Assembly (NCBI GenBank): GCA_964467765.1
Contig: CAYXSS010000002.1
Span: 1,310-65,309, forward strand
Direction: 5' to 3'
DNA length: 64,000 nucleotides
DNA from: an uncultured Candidatus Saccharibacteria bacterium
Lineage (GTDB): Bacteria; Patescibacteriota; Minisyncoccia; UBA6257; 2-01-FULL-56-20
Below the pieces are notes generated by a model. It did not search any database. It was not told where the DNA came from and worked only from the letters and a program-made list of their open reading frames with translations. The translations under genes were made by a program, and so were the position numbers. Numbering within the stretch: the stretch's first letter is position 1; each line of letters starts with the position of its first letter. Positions 4,895 to 42,527 of the stretch are shown here, piece by piece.

Positions 4895-7800
4895 ATGCCA
4901 AAAATTCCGGTAAAAAGTTTCGCCAAATCGCTGCCGCTTGTTGAACCTTTTGACCTGAACGAGGCACAACTCCGTTCTTACGGTTGGTTTTTAGAAAAAG
5001 GATTGAAAGAAATTTTCGACGAAATTTCTCCGATCACCAGCCATACCGGCAAGGAATTCGAATTATATTTCGGTAAATATCATTTTGATGAACCGAAATA
5101 TGACGAAAGAACCGCGCGCTACAAGGATGCGACCTACGAAGCATCTTTAAGGGCGGAGCTGAGGCTCGTCGATAAAAAAACAGGGAAGTCGGAAAAGCAA
5201 GAAGTTTATCTTGGTGATTTTCCGATAATGACCAACCGGGGAACTTTTATTATCAACGGCGTCGAGCGTGTGGTTATTGCGCAGCTTGTGCGATCCGCCG
5301 GCGTTTACTTCACCTCTTTCCTTTGGCGTGGCCGCCAGCTTTTCGGTGCAAAAATAATTCCGAACCGCGGCGCATGGCTCGAGTTCGAAACCGATCCGGA
5401 TGGCGCCATTGAAGTTAAAATTGACCGCCACAGAAAGGTTCCCGTAACGGACCTTTTGCGTACGTTCGGATACGATGATGAAAAAATCCGTGCGGCATTT
5501 TCCGATGTCGAAAAAGGAATGTTCGACCACATTGAAGCAACTCTTAAAAAAGACACCGCCAAAAATGCCGATGAATCTTATGTCGAGATTTATCGGCGCC
5601 TCCGTCCGGGAGATCCGGCGGCCGCAGCAACGGCCAAGGGCTTGATTGATGCCATGTTTCAGCGTTCCGATCGCTACGACTTGTCCCGCGTCGGTCGTTT
5701 TAAATTTAACCAACGTTTGTACGGCGGACAGAAAAAAGAAGATAGGGTTTTAAATGGCGAAGATTTGGTTGCGGTTATAAAAGAAATAATCAATCTGAAC
5801 AACAAACAGGATTCTCAGCCGGACGACATAGATCATTTGGGCAACAGGCGCCTTAAGGCTGTCGGCGAGCTTTTACAGGGAAGACTTCGCATTGGCTTGG
5901 CCAGATTGAAACGGATTGTACAAGACAGAATGTCTACGGAAGCAAGAGAGCGCATCTCGCCTTCGCAACTCATTAACTTCCGTCCGATTGCCGCCGTCGT
6001 TAAAGAATTTTTTTCTTCTTCACAGCTTTCGCAATTTATGGATCAAGTAAATCCGTTGGCCGAACTTGAGCACAAACGAAGGATTTCTGCCTTGGGTCCC
6101 GGTGGTTTGACGCGGGAGCGGGCCAGCTTCGAGGTTCGCGACGTTCACCGCTCGCATTACGGCCGCGTTTGTCCGATTCAAACTCCCGAGGGCGGGAGTA
6201 TCGGTCTGATTAATTATTTGGCTAGTTTCGCCAAGATAAACGATTTCGGATTCGTCGAGACGCCATATGCGCGCGTTGAAAAAGGCAGGGTGACTGGAGA
6301 AATTGTCTGGATGGACGCACTGGAAGAAGAAAAATATAAAATAACGCATGCCGGAGTAAGAAGAGACGCGGAAGGCAATCTGTTGGGTGAAGTTGTTGAG
6401 GCCAGAGTAAAAGGTACGCCGGGAACTTGCGCCATACAGGAAATTGATTTTATCGACGTTGCCCCTCATCAATTTGTTAGCGCCGCTACTTCGCTTATAG
6501 CATTTCTTCAGCACGACGACGCCAACCGTGCGCTTATGGGTTCCAACATGCAAAGACAAGCCGTTGGCTCGATCAGGCCGGCCGCCCCTTATGTTTCAAC
6601 GGGCGAAGAAGAGAGGGTTGCGAGAGACTCCGGCTATGTTTTAAAAGCGGAAGGAAGCGGTAAAGTTGTCGAAGTTGATGCGGGGAAAATAACCGTTAAA
6701 TATCAGAAAGGCGGGACCAAAACTTATCACCTGGAAAAATTTAAAAGATCGAACCAGTTTACATGTATATCGCAGCAGCCGCTGGTTAATCTTGGAGATG
6801 TTGTAAAAAAAGACGACCTTTTGGCCGATGGGCCATCTACGGATGACGGTGTTCTTGCTTTAGGCCAAAATCTTCTTGTGGCCTTTATGTCCTGGGAAGG
6901 AGCAAACTTCGAGGACGCCGTAATACTTTCCGAGCGAGCCGTGCACAAAGATCTTTTTACTTCGATACACATCGAAGATTTTTATTGCGACGTACGCGAC
7001 ACAAAACTTGGTCCGGAGTTAACAACGCCGGACATTCCCAACGTTTCCGAAGAAAAATTGAGAAATCTGGACGAAGAAGGAATTGTACGTATTGGCGCCG
7101 AAGTAAGGGCAGGCGATATTTTGGTCGGAAAAATTTCTCCCAAAGGCGAAGCCGAGCTTACTCCGGAAGAAAGGCTTCTGCGGGCAATTTTCGGCGAGAA
7201 GGCCCGTGATGTGAAAGACACTTCTCTTACGCTGCCGCATGGTAAGCGCGGCCGCGTGGTCAACATCAAGATTTTCGACAGGGAAAAAGGCGACAAGCTT
7301 GAACCGGGAATAATCAAGCGCATTCAGGTTGAGATCGCAGAGTTAAGAAAAGTGCAGGCGGGAGACAAGCTTGCCGGCCGCCACGGCAACAAAGGGGTAA
7401 TTTCCCAAGTAAGAAGAGTTGAAGATATGCCATATCTCGAGGACGGGACGCCGGTGGACATAATTTTGAATCCTTTAGGCGTGGCTTCGCGTATGAATCT
7501 TGGCCAGGTGCTCGAAACACACCTTGGTTGGGCTGCGCAAAAACTGGGATATAGAGCCGTAACCCCGGGGCTCGATTCCGCAACAGAAGACGAAATAAGG
7601 GCGGAACTCAAGGCAGCTGGTCTTCCGGAAAACGGAAAAGTGACCCTTTTCGACGGCCGGACCGGAAAAAAAGTTGATCAGAAAGTCAATGTCGGCGTAA
7701 TTTACATGCTGAAACTCAATCATCTGGTTGAAGACAAGGCACATATGCGATCTACCGGTCCTTATTCACTCATTACCCAACAACCATTAGGCGGTAAGGC

Positions 7801-34604: not shown

Positions 34605-36379
34605 TTATCAATTTCTTTCCTAATCCTCTCTATAGTTTTTTCCAGCTTTATTTCTCCTTCCTGCCCGCGGCGGTAGTTCCGGACGTTAACCGTTCCATTT
34701 TTCTCTTCCTGTTCGCCAACCACTAAAACATAGGGAATCTTCGTAATCTCGGCGTCGCGGATGCGTTTGCCAACGGTTAGGTTTTCGTCGCTTAGTTCGG
34801 CCCGGATGCCGGCTTCCCGCAAAACACGATAAATTTTTTCCGCGTATTTTCTCTGCGACGCGCCTACGTTTATTATTTCCGCTTGCACCGGTGAAAGCCA
34901 CAAAGGTAGCCGCCCTTCGAAATGTTCCAAGATGATGCCGATGAAGCGCTCGAATGTTCCGAGTATTGCCCGATGGATCATAACCGGTCGTTCCTTGCTG
35001 CCCTTGTCGCTCACATAAAAAAGACCGAATCTTTCCGGATTGTTGAAATCGAGCTGAATTGTGGCGACGGTCCATTCGCGGCCGAGAGAATCTTTGGTGT
35101 TGATATCTATTTTCGGTCCGTAAAACGCGCCATCTTTCGGCTTCGTTGCGTATTTGATGCCGGAGTTTTTGAGTACGTGTTCGAGCGCTGCCTCGGCTTT
35201 CTGCCAGAGTTCGGGATCTCCCATTGATTTATCCGGCTTTGTGGCGAGATTGAACGAAAGCGGCAAGTCGAAAGTTTTATACACCTCTTTGACAAGCTCG
35301 ATCAGATTTTTGACTTCATCCTCGATTTGGTCCGGGCGGCAATAAATATGGGCATCGTCTTGGCTCATTTGGCGCACGCGGAAAAGGCCGCCGAGCGTTC
35401 CCGAAAGTTCGTTCCGGTGCAGGCGGTCGGTAATTTCCGAGAGTCGCAGAGGCAGGTCGCGCCACGATCTCACGCGGAATTTATAAATATAGGTGCTCTC
35501 CGGGCAGTTCATCGGTTTCAGAACATAAACTTCTTTCTGTTCTCCCGGCGGGGAGAAATAAAACATATTTTCGCGGTAGTTGGCGAAGTGACCCGATTTT
35601 TCAAAAACTCCTTTTTTGACCATTACCGGCGTCGACACTTCTTCATATCCCTCGCGATCCAATTTTTCGCGCATTAATTTTTCAAGCTCCCGCCAGATGA
35701 TCATTCCTTTTCCGTGCCAAAAAGCCGCGCCGGGAGCCATGTCTTCAAAATGGAAAAGATCCAGCCGTTCGCCCAATTTCCTGTGGTCGCGCTTTTCCGC
35801 TTCGGCGCGCATTTTGATAAACTCATCCAGTTCTTTTTTGCCCGCGAAAGCCAGGCCGTAAATCCTTTGCAGCTGCGGATTTTTTTCGTCGCCGCGCCAG
35901 TATGCCGCAGCCAACCTATCGAGCTTGAAGCTGCCCCCCGGAATTTCCGAAGTGTTTTTTACGTGTCCGCCTCGGCACAAATCGAAAAATGCTTCGCCGG
36001 TATAATAGGCGGTCAATTGTTTCTTCTCGCCGACGAATTCTTTTATCAGATCCAGCTTGAACGGCTGCTCGGAGAAAAGTTTTTTTGCCGCCGCCGCCGT
36101 CAACTTTTTTCCGGAGAAAGGCAGTTTTTGCGCGATAAGCTCGCGCATCGTTTTCTCGAACTCCAACAAATCCTCCGGCGTAAGCGAGCGCGGCAAAAGG
36201 AAGTCATAATAAAATCCGTTCTCGATCGTCGGTCCGATGCCGAGTTTTGCATCGGGAAATTTTTTAAGCACGGCGGCGGCCAAAAGATGCGCCAGCGAGT
36301 GACGGACGTTTTCTATGGACTTCGAGGATTTTTTGCCGGACATATGAGTTATTATATGGCCGGCCGAGCGGTTTGACAA
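34592..36379 (-). CDS. thrS: threonyl-tRNA synthetase (N-terminally short form)
   Basis: Class II aaRS core and an anticodon-binding domain. The N-terminus (HSLAHLLAAAV) starts near the second additional domain and there is no TGS domain. The ORF begins at a TTG, and an ATG 12 codons in (at 36343) could be the real start. Confidence 0.85.
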   Translation of the reverse strand: MSNRSAGHIITHMSGKKSSKSIENVRHSLAHLLAAAVLKKFPDAKLGIGPTIENGFYYDFLLPRSLTPEDLLEFEKTMRELIAQKLPFSGKKLTAAAAKKLFSEQPFKLDLIKEFVGEKKQLTAYYTGEAFFDLCRGGHVKNTSEIPGGSFKLDRLAAAYWRGDEKNPQLQRIYGLAFAGKKELDEFIKMRAEAEKRDHRKLGERLDLFHFEDMAPGAAFWHGKGMIIWRELEKLMREKLDREGYEEVSTPVMVKKGVFEKSGHFANYRENMFYFSPPGEQKEVYVLKPMNCPESTYIYKFRVRSWRDLPLRLSEITDRLHRNELSGTLGGLFRVRQMSQDDAHIYCRPDQIEDEVKNLIELVKEVYKTFDLPLSFNLATKPDKSMGDPELWQKAEAALEHVLKNSGIKYATKPKDGAFYGPKIDINTKDSLGREWTVATIQLDFNNPERFGLFYVSDKGSKERPVMIHRAILGTFERFIGIILEHFEGRLPLWLSPVQAEIINVGASQRKYAEKIYRVLREAGIRAELSDENLTVGKRIRDAEITKIPYVLVVGEQEEKNGTVNVRNYRRGQEGEIKLEKTIERIRKEIDNKII

Positions 36380-36455
36380 ATAATTTTATATATACTATTA
36401 TGTGATTAGCGCGGGAGAAATCCCGCGACTTTGAAAAGAAAGGTAGGAACTGTCC

Positions 36456-37181
36456 ATGAAAAATCGTGGAACTGTCCAACCGGCAACACACGGCCAAGTA
36501 AGAGAGGTTCTTTCAACCATGATCCAGGCGGTGCCTGATCTCTCTGCCGAGGAGACGCAATACTGGATCGGCAACAAGCGGAAGCTGCAGTCGGAGATAC
36601 GCAAGATTTTCAAACCAGCGGACCTTCTCTCCAACGTTCGCGCCGAGCACGAACGCTTCTACCGCGAGGAGCTCGGCATGGAAGTCGACTTTTCTGGCGT
36701 CCGCGTCCCGGACGAGCCGGGCGGCTTCGACCGCGTGCTTATCGTGGCCAAAGGGCTCACGATCGAGCGCGTGATCGCCGCCTGCCGCCGCCACTTTGCG
36801 GTGAGCACGTATCGCGATAACCTCTCTGATGCCGACATGAAGTCGAACGAACGCACGCCCGCGGAAGGGCACTACGCCATCCGCGTGCGCAACCGTGAGG
36901 AAGCAGACGAGGAGCTCAAAAACCTCTCGGCCGAAGACGTCCTTGCCCGCAGCCTCAAGACCGAAACGCTCCTCGAGCGCCTGCTCCACGAGCTCAAGTA
37001 CTTCCGGGAAACCGGAAAACATTTGGACGCGGACAACTGGACGCTCTGTTCAGGTTCGCGGATTTCCTATGGCTGCGTGCCGCGCGTGGGCTGGAACAGG
37101 TGGGACCGCGGGCTCTGCGTGTACTGGGCCAACCGGTCGCACCGGCACGGCGATCTGCGCCCTCGGGCGGTTTCTGTCTAA
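36456..37181 (+). CDS. GC-rich hypothetical protein, duplicated-gene copy A
   Basis: It has its own promoter (TTGACA at 36373-36378), a GAAA hairpin in the 5' UTR and a terminator at 37210. The C-terminal roughly 175 aa are identical to copy B. Confidence 0.6.
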   Translation: MKNRGTVQPATHGQVREVLSTMIQAVPDLSAEETQYWIGNKRKLQSEIRKIFKPADLLSNVRAEHERFYREELGMEVDFSGVRVPDEPGGFDRVLIVAKGLTIERVIAACRRHFAVSTYRDNLSDADMKSNERTPAEGHYAIRVRNREEADEELKNLSAEDVLARSLKTETLLERLLHELKYFRETGKHLDADNWTLCSGSRISYGCVPRVGWNRWDRGLCVYWANRSHRHGDLRPRAVSV

Positions 37182-37209
37182 CCCTCGTAACTCAAACCTC
37201 TAACCCTTG

Positions 37210-37240
37210 GGGCCCAACATCTGTTGGGCCTCGAATTTTT
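37210..37240 (+). terminator. rho-independent terminator
   Basis: ggcccaaca/tgttgggcc stem followed by tttttt. Confidence 0.6.
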
Positions 37241-37311
37241 TATAAAAACATTGCCCGACGACCGGCTTTCTTATATCATAAAAGCAGTTTTTCGAAAGAG
37301 GATATTGGGCG

Positions 37312-38193
37312 ATGAAAGCACGCGCAGCGATTTTGTTCTTCTTTCTATCGTTCGGCGCAATTTCTTTTGCCGACGAACGGTTTGAAAATGCCAAAAAGCT
37401 TTATGAAGAGACGAAATATAAGGAATCGTTGCAGTTTCTCGACGAGAAGAGCGGTGACCAGGAAACAATATTACTTCTGGGCAAAAATTATTACCAATTA
37501 GGCGAAGCGGACAAGGATAACTATAAAACAGCGACGGATTTTTTTGAGAAAGCGGCGAACATCAATCCCAGAAACGCCGAGTACCTTTTGTGGCTTGGTA
37601 AAGCTTGGGGGCGCAGAGCAGAAACAGCCGGATTTTTGGGAAAATTGAAAGTTATAAGCTATGCGGGCAAAGCCAGGCAATATTTTGAGGCTGCGCATTC
37701 GGCCGATCCGAAAAACCATGAGGCTGCCTGGGTGACTTTCCTGTATTACCTTGAAGCCCCTGGTTTTTTGGGCGGCGGGATAGACAAGGCGAAAATTATT
37801 TCTGGAGAAATCGCGAAACTCGATGCGGCAGAAGGTGAATGCACGCTTGCTTTTCTCGAAGAAAAGCGTAAAAACTTCTCCGGCGCGAAAGCACATTGGT
37901 TAGATGCGATAAAAATCAATCCGTCGAATACGATTATAGCCGTCGAGTACGCAAAGTTTTTGAAAAGGCACAAGGATTACGGCGAGGCGGAAGTTGTTCT
38001 TATTGGGCGAAGATTTGAAGCCCCGAACACCCCGAGCGTTAACTTCGAGCTTGCCAGATTGTATTTCGAAACCGGCCGCAGGAACGAAGCCAGGGAAATA
38101 TTGGAGAAATATATTAACCCCGATCTTACTCCTCTTACCCCCGAAGACCCGTCGCGGTTTGAAGCGGAAAAGTTGTTAAAGAAGATTTCTTAG
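37312..38193 (+). CDS. secreted TPR-repeat protein
   Basis: A signal peptide and TPR-like repeats (LGKNYYQLGEADK, AWGRRAETAG). Confidence 0.65.
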   Translation: MKARAAILFFFLSFGAISFADERFENAKKLYEETKYKESLQFLDEKSGDQETILLLGKNYYQLGEADKDNYKTATDFFEKAANINPRNAEYLLWLGKAWGRRAETAGFLGKLKVISYAGKARQYFEAAHSADPKNHEAAWVTFLYYLEAPGFLGGGIDKAKIISGEIAKLDAAEGECTLAFLEEKRKNFSGAKAHWLDAIKINPSNTIIAVEYAKFLKRHKDYGEAEVVLIGRRFEAPNTPSVNFELARLYFETGRRNEAREILEKYINPDLTPLTPEDPSRFEAEKLLKKIS

Positions 38194-38203
38194 TGTTTTT
38201 CTC

Positions 38204-38230
38204 CGCGAGACAATGTGTCTCGCGTTTTGC
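38204..38230 (+). terminator. rho-independent terminator
   Basis: cgcgagac/gtctcgcg stem followed by tttt. Confidence 0.45.
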
Positions 38231-38254
38231 TTTCGCATACGAAGGCGATTGTAT

Positions 38255-39574
38255 ATGATTAATACTATGTTGGACGCAAAAATCATCAGAGAACAGCCGG
38301 ATAGAGTAAAGGAATACATCAAAACCAAAAATGCCGACCCAAAGCTCGTCGACAATTTTCTCGATCTCGACAAAAAATGGCGGGAGCTGACCGCGCTTCT
38401 AGATAATTTGCGCGCCGGGCAGAAAAAATTGAGCGAAAACCGCGATATTGATGGCGCGAGAAAAAACAAAGAAGAAATAAAATCGCTCGAAGCGCAGCTG
38501 CCCGACGTGGAAAAAGAAAGGGAGCTTGTTTGGGCGCAGATTCCGAATTTGCCCGATGCGGATGTACCCGTGGGCAAGGACGAAAAAGGAAACAAAGTTT
38601 TGCGGAAATGGGGCGAGCCGAAAAAATTTGATTTCAAACTACTCGATCACATGGAGTTGGGAACAAAGCTCGGTTTGATCGACACGGAGAAGGCGGCAAA
38701 AGTTTCCGGCGCGCGCTTCGGATATTTTATGCGCGAGGCGGCGCTCTTGGAGTTTGCCATCGTCGAGCACGCCTTAGGCGTTTTGACTGACGAGAAAATA
38801 TTAAAAACGCTGGCCGAAAAAATTACCAAGGGGTACTCCGCCAAGCCCTTTGTGCCCGTGATACCGCCGGTAATGATCCGGCCGGAAGTTTTCCGCCGCA
38901 TGGGTCGGCTCGACCCCGGGCAGGAAGAAGAAAGGTATTACTTGCCTAAAGATGATTTATACCTCGTCGGTTCAGCCGAGCACACCCTCGGGCCGCTTCA
39001 CATGGACGAGACGATTCCAGAAGAAAATTTGCCGCTTCGCTACGTCGGTTTTTCCACATCTTTCCGGCGCGAGGCTGGTTCTTACGGAAAAGATACGCGC
39101 GGCATGCTCCGCGTCCACCAGTTCGACAAAATTGAAATCGAATCTTTCACCGCGCCGGAAAATTCTCGCAAAGAACAAGATTTCATCGTTTCGATTCAGG
39201 AGTATCTGATGCAATCCCTCGAACTTCCTTATCTGGTCGTCGCCATTTGCACTGGCGATATGGGCGGGCCGGACGCGCGGCAAATTGACATCGAAACCTG
39301 GTTGCCCGGGCAAGGCAAATACCGCGAAACGCATACCTCGGACATGATGACTGATTACCAGTCGCGGCGATTGGGAACAAAAGTGCGCCGCGCCGGCCCC
39401 TCGGCAGCACTCGGGGCAGGCGGCAAGACGGAATTCGTCCACATGAACGACGCCACGGTTTTCGCCATCGGCCGGATTTTGATCGCCATCATGGAAAATT
39501 ACCAGACAAAAGAGGGCAAAATTAACGTGCCGAAGGTTTTGCAAAAGTATCTCGGAAAGAAAGTAATCGGTTAG
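38255..39574 (+). CDS. serS: seryl-tRNA synthetase
   Basis: An N-terminal coiled-coil (MLDAKIIREQPD) followed by the class II motifs. The start could be 38255 or 38267. Confidence 0.9.
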   Translation: MINTMLDAKIIREQPDRVKEYIKTKNADPKLVDNFLDLDKKWRELTALLDNLRAGQKKLSENRDIDGARKNKEEIKSLEAQLPDVEKERELVWAQIPNLPDADVPVGKDEKGNKVLRKWGEPKKFDFKLLDHMELGTKLGLIDTEKAAKVSGARFGYFMREAALLEFAIVEHALGVLTDEKILKTLAEKITKGYSAKPFVPVIPPVMIRPEVFRRMGRLDPGQEEERYYLPKDDLYLVGSAEHTLGPLHMDETIPEENLPLRYVGFSTSFRREAGSYGKDTRGMLRVHQFDKIEIESFTAPENSRKEQDFIVSIQEYLMQSLELPYLVVAICTGDMGGPDARQIDIETWLPGQGKYRETHTSDMMTDYQSRRLGTKVRRAGPSAALGAGGKTEFVHMNDATVFAIGRILIAIMENYQTKEGKINVPKVLQKYLGKKVIG

Positions 39575-39726
39575 GCGCTGGCCGGTAGGCGACGGTTGGT
39601 TGGCGCTTGTCGGCTGCCGATTGCTAATCGAGCACAAACTGTTGATTTTCCCTATTCTAATTCGCGCGAATAGAAAAATAAGGTATGATATAAGATATTT
39701 AAGATAATGGAGCTGATACTTGAGCA

Positions 39727-40002
39727 ATGAAACAATTGGAAAAAATTTTCAAAGGATTGGCGAATCGGCGGCGGCTTGCGATAATCGCGCTTTTGAGCCG
39801 CAAAAAAGAAATGGCCGTGGCCGACATCGCCGACGAGATTGGTCTTTCGTTCACCGCTACCTCCAAACACTTAGGTATTTTGCGCAACCTTGATATTCTC
39901 GATCGTAGGCAGGAGAGCTTGACGGTTTATTATCGTTTGGCGAATCCTTTGCCTCCGGTCATAAAATTACTTCTCTCAACCATTTCTAATTCGCGCGAAT
40001 AG
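39727..40002 (+). CDS. ArsR-family transcriptional regulator
   Basis: A winged HTH (RRLAIIALLS....VADIADEIGLSFTATSKHLGILRNLDIL). Confidence 0.75.
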   Translation: MKQLEKIFKGLANRRRLAIIALLSRKKEMAVADIADEIGLSFTATSKHLGILRNLDILDRRQESLTVYYRLANPLPPVIKLLLSTISNSRE

Positions 40003-40178
40003 GAAAATAAGATGACAGGAATAAGATAATAGGAAAATAAGGGGTGGGAAAATAGGGAGAAGGAGCAGAAAGTAGAGGCAGGAAAATAATGGGCAAAAAT
40101 AATCTTTTGATTGGGCGGCGAATCGAGCCATTACGATTGCTTGATAAATCTGGCGCCGGATTGAGCCACTGCAAAAAT

Positions 40179-40208
40179 TTGACAAAATAGCAAAAACCAT
40201 GCTATAAT
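40179..40208 (+). promoter_or_regulatory. consensus sigma70 promoter (TTGACA-18-TATAAT)
   Basis: Perfect hexamers upstream of duplicated-gene copy B. Confidence 0.55.
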
Positions 40209-40252
40209 GGATTTAGCGCCTGAGAAATCCGGCGACTTCACAAAACAAAAGG

Positions 40253-40975
40253 ATGCTGACCATGAAGAAGGAAATGGTCGGTTGTGCGTCGGGGAAACCT
40301 GACGTGCGGGAAGTAACGAAGGTTTTGGCGGACATCGCCGTCAAAATCGGCAACGGAACGATCTCTCTCGACGAAGCCAAGGCATTCGCGGTGCGCAAGC
40401 AGCCGTTTACGGGGCGCATCTCGAAGGTCTTGCGGGAGGAGCACGAACGCTTCTACCGCGAGGAGCTCGGCATGGAAGTCGACTTTTCTGGCGTCCGCGT
40501 CCCGGACGAGCCGGGCGGCTTCGACCGCGTGCTTATCGTGGCCAAAGGGCTCACGATCGAGCGCGTGATCGCCGCCTGCCGCCGCCACTTTGCGGTGAGC
40601 ACGTATCGCGATAACCTCTCTGATGCCGACATGAAGTCGAACGAACGCACGCCCGCGGAAGGGCACTACGCCATCCGCGTGCGCAACCGTGAGGAAGCAG
40701 ACGAGGAGCTCAAAAACCTCTCGGCCGAAGACGTCCTTGCCCGCAGCCTCAAGACCGAAACGCTCCTCGAGCGCCTGCTCCACGAGCTCAAGTACTTCCG
40801 GGAAACCGGAAAACATTTGGACGCGGACAACTGGACGCTCTGTTCAGGTTCGCGGATTTCCTATGGCTGCGTGCCGCGCGTGGGCTGGAACAGGTGGGAC
40901 CGCGGGCTCTGCGTGTACTGGGCCAACCGGTCGCACCGGCACGGCGATCTGCGCCCTCGGGCGGTAGTCTTGTAA
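40253..40975 (+). CDS. GC-rich hypothetical protein, duplicated-gene copy B
   Basis: Positions 40437-40961 are nucleotide-identical to 36643-37167. The N-terminal roughly 60 aa have diverged. Confidence 0.6.
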   Translation: MLTMKKEMVGCASGKPDVREVTKVLADIAVKIGNGTISLDEAKAFAVRKQPFTGRISKVLREEHERFYREELGMEVDFSGVRVPDEPGGFDRVLIVAKGLTIERVIAACRRHFAVSTYRDNLSDADMKSNERTPAEGHYAIRVRNREEADEELKNLSAEDVLARSLKTETLLERLLHELKYFRETGKHLDADNWTLCSGSRISYGCVPRVGWNRWDRGLCVYWANRSHRHGDLRPRAVVL

Positions 40976-41006
40976 GTAACCCTAGAACTTTGTTCCTCCA
41001 ACCCTT

Positions 41007-41038
41007 GTGGCTCGACCTTGTCGAGCCACAATTTTTTC
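41007..41038 (+). terminator. rho-independent terminator
   Basis: A 10-bp gtggctcgac/gtcgagccac stem followed by tttttt. Confidence 0.6.
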
Positions 41039-41327
41039 AATAGACTCAAATCGGCTAATACAACCGGCCGAGCGCATAAATTTTTGTGCGTTCGACAGCG
41101 GTTTGCCACAGTACGAAGGAAACTGCTTATCCGTTTTTAGTGAGGATTGTTTTTTGGCATGCCTCAAAATACAAACTGATCGCCACATTATCGCGTGTTG
41201 CGAACCAAAACGAAGCGGCGGATGTTTCAGAAAATATCGGAAAAGAACTTAGCGTCATATTTGGGCGTGTTGAGCCACTGCCGCGGGCATAAAATCAGAA
41301 AAAAGATTATGATGAAAGTATTGCACA

Positions 41328-42527
41328 ATGAAAACCTCGATCGGTAAAAACCTAAGAACCTGGATCGAGATCGATTCGCGGGCGGCGAAGAAGAATTATG
41401 ATGTTTTCAGAAAACTTTTGCAGCCCATTCGACAAGTTCAGGGCAAGCCCATTCGACCCGCTTCGCTCGCGAAGCGAGGCGAGCAAGTTCAGGGCAAAGC
41501 CGCTCCGCGCCTTTGGTCAGTTGTAAAATCCAACGCTTACGGCCACGGGTTAATTATTTTTTCGCGACTTGCGCAAAAACTGGGAATAGACGGTTTCTGC
41601 GTCGATTCTTTAGTGGAAGGGTTGCGTCTGCGGAAAGAAGGCATCAAAAAACCCATTCTGGTTTTGGGGCCGACGCTGCCGGCGCTTTTTCCGGAGGCGG
41701 CGAAACAAAAAATCACGATCACAATATCTAATTTCGAGGCCTTGAGAAACCTCGTGCAGTTGAAAACCGCTCCGGCATTTCATATTAAGGTAGACACTGG
41801 CATGCACCGGCAAGGGTTTTATCTTGGCGACCTGCCAAGAGTCATCAATACAATTGCCAAATATCAAATACCAATCACCGGAATTTATACACATTTTTCT
41901 TCTGCAAAGGACATTAATTATCCGACATATACAGAAAAACAATTTGCCGAATTTCAAAAAGCGGCAAAATTATTTGAACAAGCCGGTTTCAATAATTTGA
42001 TAAAACATTGCGCAGCAACTGGTGCGACGCTGATTGATCCTAAATATCACCTCGACGCTGTGCGTGTTGGCATCGGGCTTTACGGCCTCTGGCCGTCTAA
42101 AGAACTGGAAATTCAACTCGGCGTAAAAATTCATTTACAGCCGGTTTTGAGATGGCGCGCCGTAATAAGTGAAATGAAAAAATTGGATAAGGGTGATTAT
42201 GTCGGCTACGATTTGGCCGAGCGGATTCCGCAGACGATGCGGGCCGCGATCATGCCCGTTGGTTACTGGCACGGTTTGCCGAGGTCGCTTTCGCATATCG
42301 GCGAGGTTTTAATAAAAGGGAGAAGGGCGAAAATCATCGGCAAAGTTTCCATGGATCTTTCGGTTGTCGGTCCGGTTTTGGCAGCCGCTGCCGGCGACGT
42401 GGCGACGCTTATCGGCAGAGAGGGCAAAGAAGAGATTTCCGCTTTTGAGGTTGCCCAGCGCGCGGGGACAATACACTACGAATTTTTGACCCGACTTAAT
42501 CCTCTGATAGAAAGAATATTGTCTTAA
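41328..42527 (+). CDS. alr: alanine racemase with an N-terminal in-frame insertion
   Basis: The PLP site (VVKSNAYGHG) and an overall Alr profile. An extra segment of about 30 aa (QPIRQVQGKPIRPASLAKRGEQVQGKAAPR) is encoded by repeat-rich DNA. Confidence 0.85.
   Translation: MKTSIGKNLRTWIEIDSRAAKKNYDVFRKLLQPIRQVQGKPIRPASLAKRGEQVQGKAAPRLWSVVKSNAYGHGLIIFSRLAQKLGIDGFCVDSLVEGLRLRKEGIKKPILVLGPTLPALFPEAAKQKITITISNFEALRNLVQLKTAPAFHIKVDTGMHRQGFYLGDLPRVINTIAKYQIPITGIYTHFSSAKDINYPTYTEKQFAEFQKAAKLFEQAGFNNLIKHCAATGATLIDPKYHLDAVRVGIGLYGLWPSKELEIQLGVKIHLQPVLRWRAVISEMKKLDKGDYVGYDLAERIPQTMRAAIMPVGYWHGLPRSLSHIGEVLIKGRRAKIIGKVSMDLSVVGPVLAAAAGDVATLIGREGKEEISAFEVAQRAGTIHYEFLTRLNPLIERILS

Follow-up and report, generated by a model that had tools for sequence, protein, structure and literature searches.

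The DNA analysed here, referred to as the window, is a stretch of 64,000 nucleotides (nt) from an uncultured Candidatus Saccharibacteria bacterium (GenBank assembly GCA_964467765.1, contig CAYXSS010000002.1, positions 1,310 to 65,309 of the forward strand; positions given without a locus name are counted from its first letter). It contains two genes on the plus strand, copy A (36456..37181, 241 amino acids, aa) and copy B (40262..40975, 237 aa), whose open reading frames (ORFs) of about 240 aa begin with unrelated N-termini and share one identical tract. By exact-match extension, positions 36645..37171 in copy A and 40439..40965 in copy B were found to form a direct repeat of 527 bp with 0 mismatches, which cannot have arisen by chance. 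A first-pass annotation of this DNA had already recognised the identical core, setting its start 2 nt too early and its end 4 nt short. The tract spans codon 64 to 10 nt before the stop codon, and outside both of its ends the ungapped identity drops at once to the random level (4-11 of 20 positions). With gaps allowed, similarity extends on the 3' side past the stop codons to 37241/41037 (95.7% over 601 nt), the copies being about 65% similar, with indels, beyond the 3' end of the tract, while the N-terminal coding parts are about 47% identical (95/203 columns of a gapped alignment). The G+C content (GC) of the tract is 64.5%, and 81% at third codon positions (GC3), compared with 48.2% GC for the whole window. 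Nucleotide scans and scans with a hidden Markov model (HMM) of the family returned only two copies of the gene in the 64 kb, copy B matching the model with E = 1.3e-92.

No model in Pfam, NCBIfam, PHROG or PADLOC matched the product above its cut-off, the best sub-threshold scores being 15 bits for DUF5137 (cut-off 25) and 13.6 for DinD (cut-off 242). Hundreds of homologues of about 240 aa were found, all named ones coming from metagenome-assembled genomes (MAGs) of Patescibacteria, or Candidate Phyla Radiation (CPR), and no precomputed Pfam domain was present among them. When HMMER was run exhaustively with the core only, 1,620 clusters (50% identity) matched at E <= 1e-3 and 1,159 at E <= 1e-10. 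The product is not an orphan; it is a member of a large Patescibacteria family comprising at least 1,159 such clusters. Conserved motifs of the core (alignment A1) are W..FYR, YAIRVR, EADEEL.N.SA and TLLER...ELKYF.ETGKHLD..N.TLCSGSR. The C-terminus is a patchwork, highly variable columns being interspersed with conserved ones (G.VP.V.W...L.V.W.......LR.R.VVS, alignment A1), and the hypervariable part of the family consists of the C-terminal ~40 codons, inside the core, which are the variable region (VR) of a diversity-generating retroelement (DGR). Structure prediction, suggested in the first-pass annotation, gave an AlphaFold model (predicted local distance difference test, pLDDT, 91.5) with a C-type-lectin fold resembling that of TvpA, Mtd and TaqVP; the modelled product presents the VR on this fold, in the manner of a DGR variable protein. 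The earlier statement that the product has no recognisable domain holds for the four profile collections, but not for its predicted structure nor for its genomic context in relatives.

Upstream of the core, at least two unrelated, internally conserved types of N-terminus were distinguished, each occurring in more than 10 species-level genomes. Copy A carries a helical module of type 1 (36456-36644) before its C-type-lectin core (36645-37178), and copy B a module of type 2 (40262-40438) before the corresponding core (40439-40972). Relatives were also seen in 13 predicted viral contigs (IMG/VR, L086-L098), which encode only the lectin core (query residues ~97-239) without either N-terminal module; phages of these bacteria may also use the lectin scaffold.

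The closest type-2 relative, protein P0004, is encoded on locus L001 from a groundwater metagenome, where the genes downstream of its own are, in order, a reverse-strand avd, a reverse transcriptase (RT) gene (Pfam RVT_1) and alr, the last being also the neighbour of copy B. The last 132 nt of the gene recur 383 nt downstream with 83% identity, and 20 of the 21 mismatches lie on adenines of the downstream copy. DGRs are recognised by an invariant template repeat (TR) and a VR that is rewritten by adenine-specific mutagenic retrohoming, and the near-confinement of the L001 mismatches to adenines is therefore a DGR signature. A locus survey with one genome per species provided 80 further loci, bringing the total to 85 related loci. 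A DGR RT adjoins the family gene in 45 of these 85, nearly all with a reverse-strand avd before the RT, and some of the others are cut by contig ends. Clean TR/VR pairs were obtained in 32 loci; they are 112-132 nt long and 75-90% identical, and match the last ~120 nt of the gene, with adenine to non-adenine mismatch counts of, for example, 20:1, 25:1, 19:0 and 23:0. These data identify the family as the target (variable) proteins of DGRs. Therefore, the C-terminal domain that had been supposed constant is, in this family, the domain that bears the hypervariable site. The earlier comparison with cassette-like or polymorphic systems thus took the right direction with the polarity reversed, the VR being the C-terminal ~40 codons and the N-termini two old conserved types rather than variants in the making.

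The segment between the target gene and the TR was found to be a conserved structured RNA of ~190 nt, located directly upstream of the TR in Patescibacteria DGRs and termed here the leader RNA. In the closest type-1 relative (L003, 10730-11690; also L004 and L005), a full leader RNA is followed by a decayed avd (60 aa) and a decayed RT (110 aa) before serS. This is another inactivated cassette, at the position held in the window by a TPR protein gene.

In the window itself, the VR equivalents, placed by alignment to the TRs of the 32 related DGRs, lie at 37051..37170 in copy A and at 40845-40964, inside the tract, in copy B, and are identical to each other. When compared with the nearest foreign TR, that of L001 (alignment A2), 20 of 31 template-adenine sites differ, against 15 of 89 non-adenine sites, and the same adenine bias was observed against all 32 TRs. 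Judged against foreign TRs, none of its own being left, the window VR bears the adenine-specific divergence that is the mark of past diversification.

Just past copy B, and just beyond the region covered by the first-pass annotation, which had missed it, lies what remains of a retroelement. A tblastn search with the L001 RT gave only a short match in the window, at 41246-41311. A six-frame scan of the 64 kb with an RT profile of 36 relatives gave a sole match, at 41180-41341, covering columns 303-371 of 466 with E ~1e-15 to 1e-17. This remnant of the RT C-terminus (41180..41341, plus strand, ~55 codons, ...PHYRVLRTKTKRR...LASYLGVLSHCRGHKIRKK) abuts alr and was recovered by tblastn, by tblastx to many RTs and by the RT-HMM (E = 1.5e-17). 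It is immediately preceded by a leader RNA relic of 127 nt (41053..41179, plus strand), which corresponds to positions 1-115 of the 189-position leader profile (nhmmer E = 2.7e-20) and is 74-87% identical by blastn to the target-to-TR spacers of L001, L039, L006, L035 and L003 (alignment A4). Comparison with L001 places the deletion junction at ~41177-41180; ~1.4 kb was lost there, comprising the TR and avd together with what followed of the leader and the initial ~80% of the RT. No TR was found in the window, blastn of the gene with a word size of 7 returning the two copies only, and no significant tblastn match was obtained with the L001 Avd (best E = 0.23). No relic was seen downstream of copy A, the position at which L003 has decayed avd and RT fragments. 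The window locus is therefore a relic DGR, in which a full RT, a TR and avd are lacking from the 64 kb.

A very similar deletion was observed in locus L081 of a distant genome (~4900-4990), where the leader breaks off at ~position 111 and continues directly into RT columns 305-374, the last ~60 codons. Truncated leaders occur also in L055 (1978-2096) and L015 (3302-3430), without any RT. The recurrent deletion could reflect a hotspot, or selection keeping the RT 3' end before the downstream gene.

We consider it likely that copies A and B are old paralogous DGR targets whose local cassette was deleted and whose whole homologous part was homogenised by gene conversion. Each paralogue joins a short helical N-terminal module, of type 1 in A and type 2 in B, to a domain with a C-type-lectin fold. 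In relatives, the final ~40 codons of this domain are rewritten by adenine-specific mutagenic retrohoming from an adjacent TR by means of Avd and the DGR RT. The cassette downstream of copy B has suffered the internal deletion of ~1.4 kb and, since there is no other RT in the 64 kb, diversification has stopped locally. In a separate event, non-reciprocal recombination would have copied 527 bp from one paralogue into the other, so that the two N-terminal modules would now share one lectin domain and one frozen binding site.

The age of the two genes can be deduced from their relatives. P0003 (type 1, encoded upstream of serS in L003) and P0004 (type 2, upstream of alr in L001) have cores that are 67% identical in DNA, and past the 3' limit of the tract copy A is similar to P0003, the two having a 4-nt gap in common, and copy B to P0004. 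Judging from N-terminal type and neighbourhood rather than from a tree, P0003 and P0004 are probably the true orthologues of A and B. Because the N-terminal types are old and widespread, the cores of the relatives are diverged and the 3' ends are relative-like, the two genes must predate the tract. With only 66-79% identity, the paralogue pairs of six other genomes show that homogenisation is not the rule. The simplest reading of the tract is a recent gene conversion over all of the homologous part, whose limits are set by the end of homology at codon 64 and close to the stop codon; this was one of the two origins proposed in the first-pass annotation, and the one that best explains an identity confined to the shared core. 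Every former adenine position is identical in the two VRs, so that neither copy has undergone retrohoming since, which fits the deleted cassette; the DGR was probably lost before or soon after the conversion. With regard to direction, there is a slight lean towards copy B as the donor; the core is slightly closer to the type-2 than to the type-1 relative (67.6% versus 61.2% protein identity, in a hit list that is biased by the query). An origin of the 527-bp identity from the DGR itself, for example from reverse-transcribed target mRNA, was considered and rejected: TRs are ~120 nt long, and the ~100 adenines of the tract would have been scrambled.

Several points weigh against this interpretation. 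Among the species-level loci, core similarity shows no link to N-terminal type, which bears on the direction of conversion. Paralogues of 66-79% identity offer few long identical stretches for RecA-type recombination, so that a tract covering the whole homology is not trivially to be expected. The value of 100% could have been inflated by assembly or polishing, and scans of a metagenome collection gave 0 matches to a 40-mer of the core and no close relatives of protein A. Finally, a trans-acting DGR or a third 'master' copy may lie elsewhere, given that the window covers 64 kb of a 77-kb contig and that the genome is incomplete.

A second genome with a mosaic pair, the P6-11 MAG, carries its two copies on two contigs (L013:10150-10830 and L037:9934-10620). 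Their N-termini are 37% identical, the core upstream of the VR 93.7% (by eye ~98% over most of its length, alignment A3), the VR 82% and the 3' flank 93%, with 41% beyond it. Of the 18 differences in the VR, 15 fall on codon positions 1-2, and no RT or leader was found within 10 kb of either copy. The P6-11 VRs diverged after homogenisation and the window VRs did not.

The same pair is relevant to the first of the rival explanations, namely that both window genes exist with cores that are only similar, and that repeat collapse or consensus polishing of the MAG equalised them. The sequence comes from a single NCBI MAG contig of 77,478 nt, each protein being found on one contig only, no independent assembly was found by the exact 40-mer and relative scans, and the ~98% identity of the P6-11 cores outside the VR is a level that would allow cross-mapping of reads. 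However, each window copy is anchored in unique sequence, having a promoter, N-terminus, 3' end and terminator that the other lacks, and 3.3 kb of unique genes separates the two; therefore, the two genes are safe and only the '100%' is at stake. Moreover, the tract ends sharply where homology ends, and sequences at the usual paralogue level of 66-79% identity would not collapse. We consider an artefact of this kind quite unlikely.

Improbable, too, and to be given small weight, is a recent partial duplication in which the core and 3' flank were copied and fused to a pre-existing or new N-terminal module, which was the other origin put forward in the first-pass annotation. The family does show many N-terminal variants on one core, and DGR targets have been described as modular, intragenic recombination being suggested to fuse diverse N-terminal domains to the C-terminal lectin region (Roux et al. 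2021, PMC8144416). Nevertheless, the closest relatives have complete genes of both N-terminal types, each with a diverged core, at comparable positions (the type-1 gene upstream of serS in L003, the type-2 gene upstream of alr in L001), and the 3' ends beyond the tract are relative-specific, that of A being like P0003, including the shared 4-nt gap, and that of B like P0004. That the system is still active, a DGR elsewhere diversifying both genes in trans and the identical VRs being a snapshot or a selected state, is highly improbable: DGRs with remote targets are known, a search within 10 kb or up to the contig end detected no RT in ~40 of the 85 related loci, and in P6-11 the VRs of the paralogues have diverged and neither an RT nor a leader is close by, but in the window the VRs are identical at all ~31 template-adenine positions, where a single retrohoming event in either copy would break the identity, and the local cassette is demonstrably deleted.

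The high GC of the core, pointed out in the first-pass annotation, is not a mark of the proposed conversion event but a property of the whole family. Core GC is above the local background in 79 of 82 loci (+10.6 points on average), whereas RT GC is 6 points lower than background. In a mean of 68 genes (loci L001-L085 set), the excess amounts to +7 points in the N-terminal part, +7 to +8 in the core upstream of the VR and +18 in the VR; GC3 is raised by +13 to +24 points, and in the first 150 nt downstream of the genes GC is back at background. Third-position adenine makes up only 5% in the VR, as is to be expected of a DGR, in which silent adenines would be mutagenised, and among the GC traits this avoidance is the only one with an obvious DGR explanation. 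A horizontal origin of the GC-rich core was rejected, the excess being family-wide and absent from the adjacent RT.

The leader RNA starts at GGCTAATACAACCGG, ~7 nt after a TATAAT box, and ends at the TR; its transcription is predicted to start at the GGCTAATACA motif. Full copies are present, for example, at L001:960-1155, L039:1102-1309 and L035:1136-1348, and the leader sequence profile gave matches in 51 other loci. With RNAalifold, 20 loci yielded 41 pairs in six helices, 31 of them with compensatory changes, and the 3' strand of a long-range helix abuts the TR. Pairing cells reached 95.9%, compared with 80.6% in shuffles (0 of 500 reached the observed value) and 34-51% with slid partners. 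Neither the relic in the window nor the full leaders of nine complete loci matched Rfam 15, and no description of this RNA was found in the searchable literature, Paul et al. 2017 lying outside that scope.

These observations can be joined in a wider proposal, which we regard as conceivable though unlikely: concerted evolution of the scaffold would be a regular feature of Patescibacteria multi-target DGRs, the core, the VR and the 3' recognition region being recopied between N-terminal modules; the GC3 excess would be the footprint of GC-biased conversion; and the DGRs of this clade would depend on the ~190-nt leader RNA. On this view, the window and the P6-11 MAG, the latter with diversified VRs, would both be cases of such recopying. 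If scaffolds do evolve in concert, one TR could serve several N-terminal modules.

With respect to known systems, the window product shares the C-type-lectin fold, as modelled by AlphaFold, with Mtd of a Bordetella phage, TvpA of Treponema and TaqVP of Thermus. It differs from them in having no detectable sequence similarity to them and no match to the Pfam FGE-sulfatase or DUF1566 models, in its much smaller size (~240 aa), in its ~60-aa helical N-terminal module of at least two alternative types, and in the lack of an evident signal peptide or membrane anchor by inspection. Concerted evolution of bacterial paralogues by gene conversion is known from tufA/tufB in Salmonella. As in conversion of that type, the identity in the window is limited to what is homologous in two dispersed direct-repeat genes, whose flanks have diverged; unlike there, the partners are chimeric, have one domain in common and are part of a hypermutation system.

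Among published DGRs, the relatives of the window genes show architecture B3 (target, TR, reverse-strand avd, RT), described by Wu et al. 2018 (PMC5758913) as the layout of 90% of CPR DGRs. They also correspond to DGR clade 2, a clade restricted to CPR in Roux et al. 2021 (PMC8144416). Targets without recognisable domains, as reported for CPR DGRs in both studies (PMC5758913, PMC8144416), are common to them and to the window family, whereas the window locus, without a TR, avd and most of the RT, is a relic. Multi-target DGRs make up ~15% of DGRs (Wu et al. 2018, PMC5758913), and the window likewise has two target genes of the same family a few kb apart. The P6-11 pattern, with near-identical scaffolds and VRs differing at codon positions 1-2, is what is expected for independent diversification of paralogous targets. 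In contrast to multi-target DGRs, the window VRs are identical, and the identity reaches 400 bp upstream of the VR, far beyond homogenisation by a ~120-nt TR. The window locus is a decayed example of a known system and not a new one.

A mosaic pair of 'hypothetical proteins' can now be read as a fossil hypermutation system in an ultra-small bacterium, and a large family that had lacked annotation and a Pfam model, with at least 1,159 clusters at 50% identity, gains a name and a fold. If gene conversion is correct, the pair is also a case, dated by logic, of the fate of DGR targets after RT loss, with a frozen binding site and homogenised paralogues, and it provides direct sequence evidence for domain-level recombination among DGR targets, a process that Roux et al. 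2021 (PMC8144416) had deduced from modularity alone. Annotation pipelines should label such pairs as DGR variable proteins and take a nearby RT fragment as the sign of an inactivated cassette. The covarying leader RNA and the recurrent deletion are probably of greater interest to DGR specialists than the duplication.

The expression signals of both genes, proposed in the first-pass annotation, were confirmed by a consensus scan and RNA folding; all are on the plus strand. The promoter of copy A (36373..36401) reads TTGACA-17-TATTAT (11/12), and that of copy B (40179..40208) reads TTGACA-18-TATAAT with a TG (12/12). The transcript of copy A starts with a hairpin (36410..36427) of a 7-bp stem with a GAAA loop, within a 53-nt 5' leader folding with a minimum free energy of -16.6 kcal/mol (z = -3.0), and that of copy B with a hairpin (40215..40237), also with a GAAA loop, within a 43-nt leader of -8.3 kcal/mol (z = -1.8). 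The two hairpins are 85% identical, with one flipped G-C/C-G pair, and an Rfam search gave no match for either. Nearly every gene of the family has a consensus promoter, a AAGGAGGAACTG..CATG start context and a 5'-terminal hairpin, the sequence of which varies. An alternative upstream ATG is present in copy B at 40253; the start at 40262 was preferred because of the family's conserved ...CTGACCATG start context and the database entry P0002 of 237 aa.

On the 3' side of each copy, 25-30 nt past the stop codon, lies a GC-rich hairpin with a 12-bp stem and a T run behind it (37207..37234, z = -5.2, in copy A; 41005..41031, z = -6.7, in copy B), together with a degenerate CCTTGTACCTTGTACCCTT-like motif. 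The hairpins could represent the GC-rich inverted repeat that is one of the recognition elements 3' of a VR in DGRs but, given the T runs, may simply be terminators. Repeats like CCTTGTAC (consensus CCCTTGTACCTT....CTTGTACCCTT) form a conserved non-coding motif between stop codon and terminator hairpin across distant genomes (alignment A4). The motif spans the first ~30 nt after the stop, and its window equivalents (37182-37209 and 40976-41007) are degenerate. From its position, the CCTTGTAC-like motif is a candidate retrohoming recognition element, similar to an initiation of mutagenic homing (IMH) site.

The block of bystander genes between the copies (37312..40002) comprises, by ORF and Pfam, the genes for a TPR protein (37312-38193), serS (38213-39574) and an ArsR-type helix-turn-helix protein (39727-40002), all on the plus strand. 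On the outer sides, thrS lies upstream of copy A on the minus strand and alr downstream of copy B. In other loci, serS is found downstream of a family gene (L003 and L083) or upstream of one (L023). The direct repeats around serS can reasonably be regarded as a potential hotspot for deletion or amplification.

A further direct repeat, of 28 nt (39655-39682 and 39984-40011, 27/28 identical), flanks the ArsR-type gene, and each of its copies holds ATTCGCGCGAAT, a perfect palindrome of 12 nt. Just in front of the gene, and between hexamers that can be read by eye as possible -35 and -10 elements, lies the first copy, which may be an operator. The second overlaps the stop codon of the ArsR-type gene, ~180 nt upstream of the promoter of copy B. 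A stretch between this gene and the copy B promoter (40003-40110) is purine-rich and contains repeated AGGAAAATAAG-like units.

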